This document shows, one piece after another, positions 48,676 through 50,945 of a stretch of DNA of 64,000 nt (position 1 is its first letter; the number at the start of each line of letters is the position of its first letter). The notes beneath the pieces were generated by a model. It saw only the letters and a program-made list of their open reading frames with translations. It ran no database searches and was not told the origin of the DNA. The position numbers and the translations under genes were made by a program. Source of the stretch: Candidatus Binatia bacterium (lineage in GTDB: Bacteria > Desulfobacterota > Binatia > UBA1149 > CAITLU01); NCBI GenBank assembly GCA_047611725.1, contig JBLFWR010000001.1, positions 4,100 to 68,099 on the forward strand, written 5' to 3'.

Positions 48676-49561
48676 CCAAGAGTTGGACGGCGGCCTTTGC
48701 TATCCAAACTGCGGGGCCAACTATGACGGCGTTGGCCCGGTGTGTTGGGAAGACTGCCCGGCAGACTACCCCGCCGATTGCGGAGTCCGATGCGCGACCA
48801 CATCGGGCGACTGCGCAGCAGGCACGCTGAGCCCCGTACCTGGGTCGAGCTGTACCGAACCGCCATCGGGCACTGCGTGCAACGGCCCCTCGCAGCTATG
48901 TGACAGGCGATTCGATCACGTCACATTCGGCATGACCCACAACGCCCACGGCTGTTGCGGCGTCTCGCGGTTCACGCGGCTTTGCGACTATCTCATCACG
49001 CTCGGTCGCTTCCTCGATGCCAATCCCAGCGAAACGCTGACCCTGCTCATCGAGCATACCGATGGACTAAGCGTTCAGGACGTTGCCGGAGTTTTTCAAA
49101 GTACCGGTCTCGATAGCCGAACCTACGTAAAGCCCGCGTGCGCGGCGTGGCCTACGCTCTCCCAACTTGGCGGACGAATCCTTGCCTTCTCTCAAGACGG
49201 TTCGTTCGGCGGAGTGATCCAACGCCTTTGGAGTCAAGGCTTCGACAATCCCTACTCATACGACATCGTAGAAGGTTACGCGCTGCCGCGGACGTGCGAG
49301 GTCGGGCGCGGCACTCAGAGCGGTTTATTCCTGATTAATCATTTCATCACACCTCCATCATCGGGAATCACCGGCTCGTACTCGAACGGGGATCGCCTGC
49401 TTGACCAAGTCGATGCCTGCGAAGCAGCCGAGTACAAGACGCCGAATTTCATCGCGCTGGACTACTATGAGCAGGGCTCGTTCGACGGCGGCTCTTTTGC
49501 CAACTACGTCGCTTCTATCAACGCGAGACCTCATTTCGGACGCGCCTGGGACCAAGGATGA
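48620..49561 (+). CDS. secreted PI-PLC X-domain-like (PLC-like phosphodiesterase, TIM-barrel) protein with N-terminal Cys-rich module; start uncertain (TTG in ORF track)
   Basis: FLDANPSETLTLLIEHTD, GRILAFSQDG, LFLINHFITP, NFIALDYYEQG align by eye with Bacillus PI-PLC blocks (FLKDNPSETIIMSLK, GKIVLLKRY, LYINFTS, VGWVIQDYIN). HVTFGMTHNAH corresponds to the catalytic His region. Confidence 0.5.
   Translation: MPRAATAEERESSSAVAASQELDGGLCYPNCGANYDGVGPVCWEDCPADYPADCGVRCATTSGDCAAGTLSPVPGSSCTEPPSGTACNGPSQLCDRRFDHVTFGMTHNAHGCCGVSRFTRLCDYLITLGRFLDANPSETLTLLIEHTDGLSVQDVAGVFQSTGLDSRTYVKPACAAWPTLSQLGGRILAFSQDGSFGGVIQRLWSQGFDNPYSYDIVEGYALPRTCEVGRGTQSGLFLINHFITPPSSGITGSYSNGDRLLDQVDACEAAEYKTPNFIALDYYEQGSFDGGSFANYVASINARPHFGRAWDQG
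48628..48673. repeat. perfect inverted repeat: 20-bp arms AGCAGCTACAGCCGAGGAGC / GCTCCTCGGCTGTAGCTGCT around 6-nt loop GGGAGA, flanked by direct 8-mers GCCAAGAG (48622-48629 and 48675-48682)
   Basis: Read directly. Sits exactly at the frame break between two homologous Cys-rich coding modules. Confidence 0.85.
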
Positions 49562-50945
49562 GCCCCGTACGATCTTCCGCTCGGCAGCGACTGCTCAGTA
49601 GACGGCGACTGCGCCAGCCATATCTGTCCCGCGGGTAGTTGCGTCGATCACTACTGTGGTGATGGCACAATCGACCAAGGCGAAGCCTGCGACGACGGGA
49701 ATCAGGTCGATACGGACTTGTGCACCAACACCTGCAACCAATGCCAAATGCGGAGACGGAATCGTAGGGCCTGGCGAGGCCTGCGACGACGCTAATTCCG
49801 CCGATAGCGACGCTTGCACGAACGCCTGCGCTGATGCCGTGTGTGGGGACGGTATCGTTCAACTTGGCGTCGAAAGTTGCGACAACATGAATACTGCCGA
49901 CGGCGATTGTTGTGGGTCGTCATGCGCCCACGACGCGGTGGGGACCGGATGCGACGATGGCGACGCCTGCACAGTGGGTGACACCTGCGATGAGGGCGGC
50001 GACACGTGCAACGTCGCCCTCGGGACGACCTGCTCCGACGACGGCAATACGTGCACCGACGACCAGTGTGACGGTGCTGGTGCGTGCGAACATCCGAACA
50101 ACGCGAAGCCGTGTGATAACGGCCTATTCTGTAACGGCGCCGATTCTTGCTTAGGCGGTAGCTGCTTGGCACACGCGGGTGGTCCGTGTGCTGCAGGGAC
50201 CGATTGCAACGACGACTGCGACGAGACGCAGAATAACTGTTTCGCCGCGGCAGGCTCGAGCTGCACCGACAATGGAGATATCTGCACGGACGACGAGTGC
50301 TACGGGCCGGGCACATGCGACCACGTGTTGGCCCCCACCAACCACCCGTCCTGTGTAACGACAACAACCACATCGACGACAATATCGTCGACAACGTCAA
50401 CGACGAGCACGACCCTGTCGGGCCCCGCTAGCTGTGGCTTGTCGCCTGCGCCGCTGTGCTTGGACGCGGCACAGGCGAAGTTCCACTACAGAGAGAAGTC
50501 GGCTGGGAAAGAGAAGATGAAGATGCAGTGGAAGAAGGTTGCCGATGCTACCACGCAAGCGGGCTTCGGTGATCCGGCAAACGGTGACACCAGCGTTGCT
50601 GTATGCATTTACGATGACCTCGGCGGTCTTGTCCAGGACTTCCTGGTTGATCAGGCAGGTCAACTTTGTGCTGGCACTCCGTGCTGGAAGGCCCGGGGCA
50701 CGAAGAGCTACGGATACAAGGATAGGAACAACGCGTCGGACGGCATCGCCAAGATCGTCTACAGGGCGGGTGAGCCCGGTCGGGGCGCGGCTGACGTCCG
50801 TGGTAAGAACGACATCGCACACGGGCAGGCGGCATTGCCGACCGGCGTTGTTGCGGCGCTAAGGGGCAACGTGAGCCCTACCGAGTGTGTCGCGGTTTGC
50901 GCCCGAGACGGTCAGCAACAGTACATTCGCTCGGACCAACCTTGA
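49562..50945 (+). pseudogene. Myxococcus-type cysteine-rich repeat (TIGR02232-like CGDG-x-GE-x-CDDGN...) secreted protein with Thr-rich linker and C-terminal domain; apparently frame-broken (or sequencing indel)
   Basis: A first repeat unit CGDGTIDQGEACDDGNQVDTDLCTNTCNQ reads in frame 2, directly continuing past the TGA of the upstream ORF with no start codon. Units 2-3 (CGDGIVGPGEACDDANSADSDACTNAC, CGDGIVQLGVESCDNMNTADGDCCGSSC) and the rest (ORF 49656..50945) are in frame 3. The switch is at about 49743 (aaccaaTgccaaatgcgga). Long Arg-rich antisense ORF 49792..50400 is a GC artifact. Confidence 0.4.

Follow-up and report, generated by a model that had tools for sequence, protein, structure and literature searches.

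Bacterial PI-PLC-like phosphodiesterases are represented by enzymes from Listeria (PDB: 2plc), S. aureus (PDB: 3v16) and B. cereus (PDB: 1ptd), and in most members the domain is located at the end of the protein. In proteins of the TIGR02232 (cysteine-rich acidic, "Myxococcus-type" repeat) and DUF4215 families, the repeats come after a short Cys knot at the start of the mature protein and occur together with other modules. Programmed recoding is known from the +1 frameshift of prfB, the -1 frameshift of dnaX and UGA read-through or selenocysteine insertion. Finally, two reports describe quasipalindromes as hotspots of template switching at which the two arms become homogenised (PMC7202029, PMC8604942).

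The region at 48323-50945 of the window (the whole 64-kb stretch of DNA that was analysed) touches on all of these. Its coding features lie on the plus strand and form the chain of modules that the earlier note described: two Cys modules, a PI-PLC-like domain, three TIGR02232 repeats, further Cys-rich repeats, a Thr-rich linker and a C-terminal domain. We consider it likely that the region represents two neighbouring genes, each for a secreted, disulfide-rich protein and each put out of action by real mutations, with no recoding involved. It is best read as ordinary gene decay, with the headless remnant of a Cys-rich gene beside a broken phospholipase-C-like gene. From sequence comparisons our verdict is that the locus comprises two putative pseudogenes.

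The earlier note had considered a recently pseudogenised giant secreted protein crossed by three lesions. Pseudogenisation is supported by lesions that recur in independent assemblies and by further inactivating damage relative to intact relatives, but the single giant protein is probably wrong. The reading frame is reproducibly disrupted relative to intact homologues at ~48670 and ~49742, as judged from relatives, the repeat period and three assemblies. The damage also exceeds the three lesions counted, since it includes a 47-codon in-frame deletion, a probably split signal peptide and a shortened C-terminal domain; the TGA at 49559, by contrast, was probably miscounted as a lesion, as it occupies the usual stop position of its family.

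A PI-PLC-like gene with N-terminal Cys modules

The ancestor of gene 1 would have encoded a signal peptide, two GYDGVGPVCW-type Cys modules and a C-terminal PI-PLC-like phosphodiesterase domain. The gene bears three lesions, namely a probable -1 shift (~48343), a +1 insertion in a hairpin (48628-48673) and the 47-codon in-frame deletion (48949|48950), and the TGA at 49559 would be its own original stop. Two N-terminal Cys modules of this type on a PI-PLC-like protein are seen elsewhere only in P0002, a read-level fragment from SRR5690606 with no contig on record. The Cys module also occurs in tandem in the relatives L004, L006 and L016.

The probable original start of gene 1 (48323-48346) consists of ATG 48323 and the residues MVPSSAK in frame 2, followed by a TAG at 48344-48346. 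MVPSSAK is probably the n-region of a signal peptide, and a -1 shift, through loss of one base or gain of two, would have separated it from the h-region. The hydrophobic core and cleavage region, IAAAAFTFTIMAGLFLAPSAQA, was read by eye in frame 1 at 48343-48408. This frame has no ATG, GTG or TTG before ATG 48373, and a start at that codon would leave only MAGLFLAPSAQA. L004 possesses a normal signal peptide ahead of the same Cys module. Both the signal-peptide lesion and the C-terminal shortening of gene 2 were judged from alignments and by eye.

Cys module 1 (..LCYPGCAGGYDGVGPVCWQQCPSGYIDDGVTCR..AKSSYSRGAGELLGCS) extends over 48409-48669 in frame 1 and is 64% identical to P0002. Cys module 2 and the start of the catalytic domain (..CNGPSQLCDRRFDHVTFGMTHNAH) follow at 48671-48949 in frame 2. 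Between the modules, and inside conserved coding sequence, lies a perfect inverted repeat (48628-48673), so the palindrome reported in the earlier note is real. Its 20-nt arms (48628-48647 and 48654-48673) are 100% complementary and separated by a 6-nt loop. Among the close inverted repeats of the window it ranks first in length, and of the 25 listed it alone is perfect; as DNA it folds with -29 kcal/mol (z = -8.0; none of 200 shuffles equalled it).

A +1 insertion within the palindrome, T 48670 or an equivalent base, moves the reading from frame 1 to frame 2 and creates a TAG at 48673-48675. P0002, L004 and L006 are unshifted at this site and read continuously through AK.SYGRGAG-x4-C-x3-x3-D.GLCY; the window matches the junction spacing of its relatives only when one base is taken out. 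The hairpin is lineage-specific. At the homologous junctions of six relatives the perfect close inverted repeats measure just 4-7 bp, against 20 bp in the window, and the left arm encodes a Ser where all relatives have a Gly of SYGRGAG. Both arms thus depart from the family consensus, the left by the exchange of Gly for Ser and the right by the inserted T.

We propose that template-switch (quasipalindrome) mutagenesis made the arms perfectly complementary and added the frameshifting base. The quasipalindrome mutations described for E. coli and yeast hotspots are alike in that a mutation cluster perfects the inverted segments and includes a 1-nt frameshifting insertion (PMC7202029, PMC8604942, PMC8794818). 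The proposed switch differs from those cases in that, with only 4-7 bp of complementarity at the junctions of relatives, more than one step or a single long templated patch would be required. A MITE- or IS-like insertion was also considered for the palindrome, prompted by a flanking 8-nt direct repeat, GCCAAGAG (48622-48629 and 48675-48682). It was ruled out because the enclosed 45 nt encode the SYGRGAG..C junction that is conserved in all relatives, and removal of 53 nt leaves the frame unrestored.

The frame-2 ORF that covers the catalytic domain (48620-49561) ends in the TGA at 49559-49561. It resembles the PI-PLC-like phosphodiesterases in its motifs CNG..LC, THNA, FLDANP, AWPTL and LFLINH and differs from them in the upstream frameshift and in the deletion. 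The deletion junction CAC|GGC (48947-48952) lies within the catalytic domain, at a site where P0002 and seven other relatives carry ..NQ..QL..G.R..m.D....lCH..; 47 residues are absent from the window. In the profile alignment to 2plc, the missing segment (GiR...l.H) bears the conserved GiR and l.H motifs with a conserved Arg and a conserved His. We take this Arg and this His, one of two conserved His, to be active-site residues, the His being the second catalytic one, as in the PI-PLC of B. cereus and Listeria. The rest of the domain (48950-49558) is included in P0001, a 209-aa product that starts at an internal ATG (48932).

The PLC-like ORF went unrecognised in local scans against Pfam and NCBIfam, and the family was assigned from homologues, their Pfam tags and a profile-to-PDB match. 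The family comprises 6,901 relatives at E<=1e-3, and precomputed Pfam tags of the homologues name PI-PLC_X (PF26146) and Rv2075c_cat (PF26178). The family profile matched PDB structures of PI-PLC with an E value of 8.5e-7. By sequence, membership is clear, with similarity across the catalytic domain.

The TGA at 49559 and the Cys-rich repeats behind it

The TGA at 49559-49561 most likely served the PLC-like gene as its native stop, because it stands where the family usually stops; a nonsense mutation in a fused gene is less likely. In the window, 78 aa separate LFLINH from the stop, within the range of 62-81 aa that holds for 58 of 63 family ORFs. Furthermore, 134 of 150 representatives have the PLC-like domain at their C-terminus (<=28 aa from the profile end). 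The sequence downstream would then most likely belong to a second gene that is missing its 5' end. An alternative code with TGA as a sense codon was ruled out, as neighbouring genes end in TGA. A start of gene 2 at an ATGA overlap (ATG 49558) was likewise ruled out, since translation in that frame gives MSPVRSSARQRLLSRRRL.. and ends after 26 codons.

In the same frame, immediately behind the TGA, 49562-49741 encodes APYDLPLGSDCSVDGDCASHICPAGSCVDHYCGDGTIDQGEACDDGNQVDTDLCTNTCNQ, a Cys-rich repeat without a start codon, as the earlier note had observed. Behind the TGA, the first ATG, GTG or TTG comes at codon ~52, and none of the frames encodes a hydrophobic leader; the repeats thus lack the start codon and signal peptide of an exported protein. 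This first part of the gene 2 remnant, in frame 2, holds a small Cys knot and TIGR02232 repeat 1. The 60-aa stretch scores 33.9 bits against TIGR02232 (NCBIfam cutoff 20.8, E 2e-8), and 49743-50942 scores 35.3 bits in two stretches. The scores for Pfam DUF4215 (20.5 and 25.6 bits, respectively) are just below the gathering score of 27. Right after the signal peptide, the relatives P0122 and P0088 carry a DxDC..CGDG opening, and P0109 and P0096 carry CGDG repeats. Gene 2 therefore appears to open like the mature N-terminus of these stand-alone relatives.

The ancestor of gene 2 would have encoded a signal peptide, a Cys knot, three TIGR02232/DUF4215 repeats, more Cys-rich repeats, a Thr-rich linker and a conserved C-terminal domain. 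Its start codon and signal peptide would have been lost, presumably via a short deletion, such that the mature coding part came to abut the stop of gene 1, in the same frame by chance. Further damage consists of a +1 insertion (49739-49742) and a C-terminal domain that is ~12 codons short.

As in their TIGR02232/DUF4215 relatives, the three CGDG..E.CDDGN..D.C...C repeats have a 31-aa period, but a +1 frameshift separates repeats 1 and 2 and the window lacks a start codon and signal peptide. The spacing is 94 nt from repeat 1 to repeat 2 and 31 codons (93 nt) from repeat 2 to repeat 3, and there is therefore exactly one extra base between repeats 1 and 2. This bears out the shift that the earlier note had put near 49743, although 49743 itself is not the best position for the extra base. 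The insertion site is CAAT (49739-49742), of which any base serves and T 49742 is the simplest choice. It moves the reading from frame 2 to frame 0; beyond it, frame 2 meets a stop 17 codons on (TAA 49790-49792), and frame 0 reads AKCGDG... from 49743 up to the TGA at 50943-50945. A 7-nt tandem duplication (CAATGC/CAAATGC) was rejected as the cause, since a single-base insertion fits the 31-aa period better.

Frame 0 encodes TIGR02232 repeats 2 and 3 (49743-49943) and more Cys-rich repeats of the C.DDG.FCNG type (up to 50354), followed by the Thr/Ser-rich linker VTTTTTSTTISSTTSTTSTT (50355-50414) and the C-terminal domain (50415-50945) with its TGA stop. The C-terminal domain is shared with P0110 (54% identity), P0021 and P0016 and has no match to a Pfam or NCBIfam family. 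It is ~12 residues short after GNVSPT (50865-50897), where a conserved ..IQL.T.DGFC.. strand is missing.

The strongest competing explanation is a single giant secreted protein, recently pseudogenised, in which the TGA at 49559 would be a nonsense mutation. We regard this as unlikely, yet several features speak for it. The frame runs on through the TGA, and a start codon, a signal peptide and an intergenic spacer are all absent. P0016, P0021 and P0110 display a layout of head domain, Cys-rich spacers and C-terminal domain, DUF4215 repeats are fused to many different domains, and 16 of the 150 PLC-family representatives have C-terminal extensions. Proteins that share this C-terminal domain usually begin with an N-terminal head domain, a place that a fused PLC could fill, and this counts against two genes. 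The two-gene model furthermore requires an additional deletion, and same-frame continuity after the TGA has a chance of only 1 in 3. Against the giant protein, one random nonsense mutation in ~850 codons would have had to hit the ~15-codon stretch of natural family stops. A fusion of PLC with DUF4215 was not found among the matches listed (120 of 1,707 DUF4215 matches), nor in seven C-terminally extended PLC proteins (Pfam scan). Neither fusion nor adjacency was found in 80 family loci (motif scan in all six frames), so that adjacency, as two genes would require, is likewise without precedent there.

The choice between one ancestral gene and two rests on family statistics, since the searches turned up no orthologous locus in a sister species. 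A related-locus search in GTDB genomes did not find an orthologous locus of P0001. With the Cys module as seed, a metagenome scan yielded 49 loci in which the module is fused to unrelated domains, and no PLC orthologue was among them. We continue to favour two neighbouring genes, mainly because of the position of the TGA.

Functional fragments, artefacts and recoding

It is far less probable that the fragments still work as separate small genes, e.g. P0001 (209 aa) or a GTG-started ORF at 49656-50945. Both ORFs are long, and P0001 is annotated as a protein by NCBI and JGI and has two NCBI accessions. However, the start of P0001 is an internal Met just upstream of the 47-codon deletion junction, and its product would have neither a signal peptide nor half of the barrel. 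The first 29 residues of the ORF at 49656 are repeat 1 read out of frame, and its product also lacks a signal peptide although it is rich in disulfide cysteines.

The lesions could also be sequencing or assembly artefacts in GC-rich repeats, with the true genes intact, as the earlier note had allowed. The source is a metagenome-assembled genome, and assemblers are notoriously prone to errors at repeats and hairpins. Against this, separately assembled contigs from two SRA runs and one JGI metagenome are identical to the window base for base over all lesions. The Logan assemblies SRR28416755 and SRR28416802 and JGI 3300054698 show 100% identity over 18,274, 8,634 and 1,451 nt, respectively. The lesions are thus real mutations and not read errors, because three other assemblies (L001, L002 and L003) agree across every one of them. 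All of these assemblies, the window included, stem from one clonal population, in which intact alleles may occur as a minority. The damage is local. The 12 flanking genes called across ~18 kb look intact, with normal lengths, Pfam matches and no frame breaks, and the locus lies between two conserved flanks, a SCO1/SenC gene and a GDSL-lipase gene. Deficits of 141 nt and ~36 nt, both in frame, are furthermore unlike the changes made by read errors. We hold an artefact to be highly improbable.

Slimmer still are the chances of genuine recoding, with frame shifts at ~48670 and ~49742 and read-through of UGA 49559 leading to a full-length protein. The segments between the lesions are stop-free and recognisably homologous to their own families, and the lesions are fixed in every assembly examined. 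The likeness to programmed recoding is superficial and consists in homologous coding that resumes in another frame or past the UGA. The option nevertheless finds no support in the shift sites, in the RNA behind the UGA or in the deleted active-site residues. There is no slippery codon at AGC-T-GCT or CAA-T-GCC, neither of which lets the P-site tRNA re-pair in +1. A prfB-like CUU-UGA-C was not found at the shift sites when the sequence was read directly; AGC TGC TAG C and AAC CAA TGC C bar re-pairing, and no AGGGGG-like element precedes them.

No stable stem-loop 3' of the UGA was detected, as the minimum free energy of 49540-49640 (-32.3 kcal/mol) lies above the shuffle mean (-35.4 kcal/mol; z +0.86), and no SECIS-like hairpin was found after UGA 49559. 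An Rfam search of 48000-51200 gave two matches far below the gathering score (E 0.75 and 0.92), both on the palindrome and none near the UGA. Unlike programmed sites, these have no slippery sequence, stimulatory SD or hairpin, or SECIS-like fold. The shift is not conserved either, with P0002, L004 and L006 unshifted at the first site. The lesions are of differing kinds and stand alongside inactivating deletions, and TGA is an ordinary stop in neighbouring genes. With three or four inefficient events in series, hardly any product would be made, and any recoded product would still miss 47 residues of the catalytic core and be dead.

The least credible idea is that the whole chain (a -1 shift, a +1 shift within the hairpin, read-through of the UGA and another +1 shift) is decoded into a single exported protein of ~870 aa, or in milder form that leaky UGA read-through makes a nascent gene fusion of the in-frame neighbours; if the ~870-aa decoding were true, so many recoding events stacked in a single bacterial gene would be without precedent.

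Annotation of the probably decayed locus

The frameshifting base within a perfect hairpin provides a clean natural example of a palindrome-associated frameshift. With an ancestral sequence, the hairpin would lend itself to a case study of how template switching mutates the genome of an uncultured bacterium.

Gene callers split the locus into the internal-Met 209-aa "hypothetical protein", a 142-aa plus-strand fragment (L001, 9230-9658) and two spurious antisense ORFs. It would be better marked as two pseudogenes. More generally, 5' truncation of a neighbouring gene can by chance leave a frame open beyond a stop codon, and such a frame need not signal read-through.

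Gene 1 and its palindrome

The locus most likely comprises two genes in decay, each for a secreted, cysteine-rich protein: a PI-PLC-like gene remnant (gene 1, 48323-49561) and a Cys-rich repeat gene remnant (gene 2, 49562-50945). The closest relative of gene 1, P0002, is a 241-aa read-level fragment (64% identical) that forms a single continuous ORF with two Cys modules and a PI-PLC-like domain. The inter-module junction is also unbroken in the metagenome loci L004 and L006, following the pattern AK.SYGRGAG-x4-C-x3-x3-D.GLCY. The window sequence, AKSSYSRGAG-ELLG-C-SAS-QEL-D-G-GLCY, fits this spacing only when one base (T 48670 or equivalent) is removed. 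This base puts TAG 48673-75 in frame and sits in the right arm of the palindrome reported in the earlier note. That palindrome is indeed a perfect 20-nt inverted repeat (arms 48628-47 and 48654-73, 6-nt loop), the longest close inverted repeat of the 64-kb window and the sole perfect one among 25 listed, and it folds as DNA at -29 kcal/mol (z -8.0). Perfect close inverted repeats at six homologous junctions in relatives reach only 4-7 bp, so the 20-bp palindrome is lineage-specific. In its left arm, Ser replaces the Gly of SYGRGAG found in every relative, and the altered position is complementary to the conserved Cys codon of the right arm. Changes in both arms that raise complementarity, including a frameshifting insertion, are the signature of quasipalindrome template-switch mutagenesis (PMC7202029, PMC8604942). 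Such mutagenesis may have generated both the complementary arms and the frameshifting base, with relatives rather than ancestral DNA serving as the comparison.

An 8-nt direct repeat (GCCAAGAG, 48622-48629 and 48675-48682) lies at or ≤1 base from both hairpin ends, its left copy sharing 2 nt with the arm. It resembles a target-site duplication, and insertion of the hairpin is ruled out because the repeat encloses homologous coding sequence. The repeat may have arisen by chance or as part of the templated event.

At the 5' end, frame 2 opens with ATG 48323 and encodes MVPSSAK before a TAG. Frame 1 goes on as IAAAAFTFTIMAGLFLAPSAQA, with no canonical start in that frame upstream of ATG 48373. 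Judged by eye, the signal peptide is probably split by a -1 shift. The PLC catalytic domain lacks 47 residues present in P0002 and seven further relatives (bracketed in THNAH[...NQ..QL..G.R..m.D....lCH]GxCG). Alignment of the family profile to PI-PLCs of known structure (2plc, E 8.5e-7) puts the conserved GiR and l.H motifs inside the missing segment. We take these to be the active-site Arg and second catalytic His, as in B. cereus and Listeria PI-PLC. The deletion junction joins CAC to GGC (48949 to 48950), consistent with a microhomology-mediated deletion.

The Cys module (48409-48800 in the window; L004, 1100-2015; L006, 2200-3000; metagenome locus L016, 2200-2700) follows the pattern ..DaGLCYP.C..GYDGVGPVCWq.CPsg.tDdG.fCr....aK.SYGRGAG....C and matches no Pfam or NCBIfam family beyond a weak cEGF match. 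It forms tandem arrays in 49 metagenome loci, joined to quite different C-terminal domains, and looks like an undescribed extracellular repeat. Among the PLC-family loci (L053-L132), many from Actinomycetota and Gemmatimonadota encode proteins of 700-1,000 aa that end in the PLC-like domain and whose large N-terminal regions are uncharacterised. A few (L115, L118, L120, L131) carry an additional ~210-240-aa tail past the usual stop.

The TGA and the start of gene 2

TGA 49559-61 terminates the frame-2 ORF 48620..49561, and 77 more codons are open in the same frame. The first 60 (49562-49741, APYDL...CGDGTIDQGEACDDGNQVDTDLCTNTCNQ) match TIGR02232 at 33.9 bits (cutoff 20.8) and fall slightly under the gathering score of Pfam DUF4215. 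ATG, GTG and TTG are absent from this frame for ~52 codons 3' of the TGA, bearing out the description of a same-frame Cys-rich repeat with no start codon. Repeats 1-2 are spaced by 94 nt and repeats 2-3 by 93 nt (31 codons), which implies exactly one surplus base between repeats 1 and 2. The extra T proposed near 49743 therefore holds as a single surplus base, but it lies within CAAT 49739-49742, with T 49742 the simplest candidate. Frame 0 is open from 49743 as far as TGA 50943-45.

The distance from LFLINH to the stop is 78 residues in the window and 62-81 in 58 of 63 family ORFs drawn from 80 GTDB genome loci. Counted from the table of the best 150 of 6,901, 134 representatives end ≤28 residues from the profile end. 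The gene 1 tail INARPHF.. also resembles that of the PLC-like relative P0008 (INQMDHWQ, then stop). The TGA is thus at the family's normal stop position, and on this comparison we think that it is not a lesion.

The earlier note's gene decay stands, while its single giant gene, which would need a nonsense TGA at 49559, is less likely. In a fused gene of 850 codons, one random nonsense mutation would have a ~2% chance of falling in the ~15-codon natural-stop window, whereas two genes require an in-frame abutment (~1 in 3) and one short 5' deletion; on these figures two genes would be the appreciably likelier arrangement. Two genes are also supported by the gene 2 opening, APYDLPLGSDCSVDGDC..C..CGDG, which looks like the N-terminus of mature stand-alone relatives: in P0122 and P0088 this Cys knot directly follows the signal peptide, as do CGDG repeats in P0109 and P0096. 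Against two genes, proteins with the gene 2-type C-terminal domain mostly have an N-terminal head domain, and PLC/DUF4215 fusion or adjacency has no precedent in the DUF4215 matches listed, the extended PLC proteins scanned or the 80 family loci. An ATGA start/stop overlap (49558-49561) is probably coincidental, since its ATG opens merely a 26-codon Arg-rich frame.

Gene 2

Gene 2 lacks its start codon and leader and carries the +1 insertion. As far as GNVSPT, its C-terminal domain shares 54% identity with P0110 and 49% with P0021; beyond that it falls short by ~12 residues, and the conserved IQL.T.DGFC strand is absent, which may reflect a further in-frame loss. This conserved ~175-aa domain (50415-50942; also P0110, P0021 and P0016) ends several otherwise unrelated secreted proteins, with the pattern C..P..C...A.....EK.AGKEK.K.QWKK......FGDP......CIYDD......C.GK.CWKAKG..GYGYKD.. 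and might serve in sorting or anchoring. The Pfam and NCBIfam scans gave no family for it, nor for repeats of the FCNG type. Over the Cys-rich repeats, gene callers placed antisense ORFs (49595-49819 and 49792-50400; 8308-9086 in L001, another assembly of the locus) in place of the sense frame. These two ORFs (74 and 193-202 aa), Arg-rich and without Pfam matches, look like artefacts of the frameshift and missing start codon.

Recoding, sequencing error and meaning

Genuine recoding, by TGA read-through or frameshifting, is very improbable: AGC-T-GCT-AGC and AAC-CAA-T-GCC allow no P-site tRNA re-pairing in +1, both shift sites lack a prfB-like context, folding of the 100 nt at and beyond the UGA does not surpass that of shuffled sequences (z +0.86), the two Rfam matches are sub-threshold (E 0.75, 0.92) and on the palindrome rather than a recoding site, TGA is a stop in neighbouring genes, site 1 is unshifted in relatives, and a fully recoded product would still lack the catalytic core.

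The 209-aa product of the internal-Met ORF in gene 1, P0001, is recorded exactly in NCBI (two accessions, MAG labelled 'Hyphomicrobiaceae bacterium'), JGI and Logan. Three further contigs carrying it (Logan SRR28416755, Logan SRR28416802, JGI 3300054698) match the window at 100% identity over 18,274, 8,634 and 1,451 nt, with all lesions covered. On either side of the damage, 12 called genes (COX15, UbiA, an ABC transporter pair, SCO1/SenC, GDSL lipase, SDF, patatin, ATP sulfurylase, peptidase S13, epimerase and ADH) have ordinary lengths and Pfam matches. These results exclude random sequencing error, which the earlier note had considered, and limit the damage to ~2.6 kb. All contigs with the lesions represent one clonal population, so the persistence time of the lesions cannot be read from them. 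P0001 had no near relative in the GTDB species-representative scan. Most TIGR02232/DUF4215 proteins, like most of the nearest PLC-family loci, belong to Myxococcota and similar MAGs; 'Hyphomicrobiaceae bacterium' is NCBI's own label.

The sequence observation holds up and its biology is ordinary, with one of the frameshifts inside a striking, lineage-specific perfect hairpin. Its useful outcome is a corrected annotation of the locus, together with the caution that an in-frame continuation beyond a stop codon need not mean read-through.
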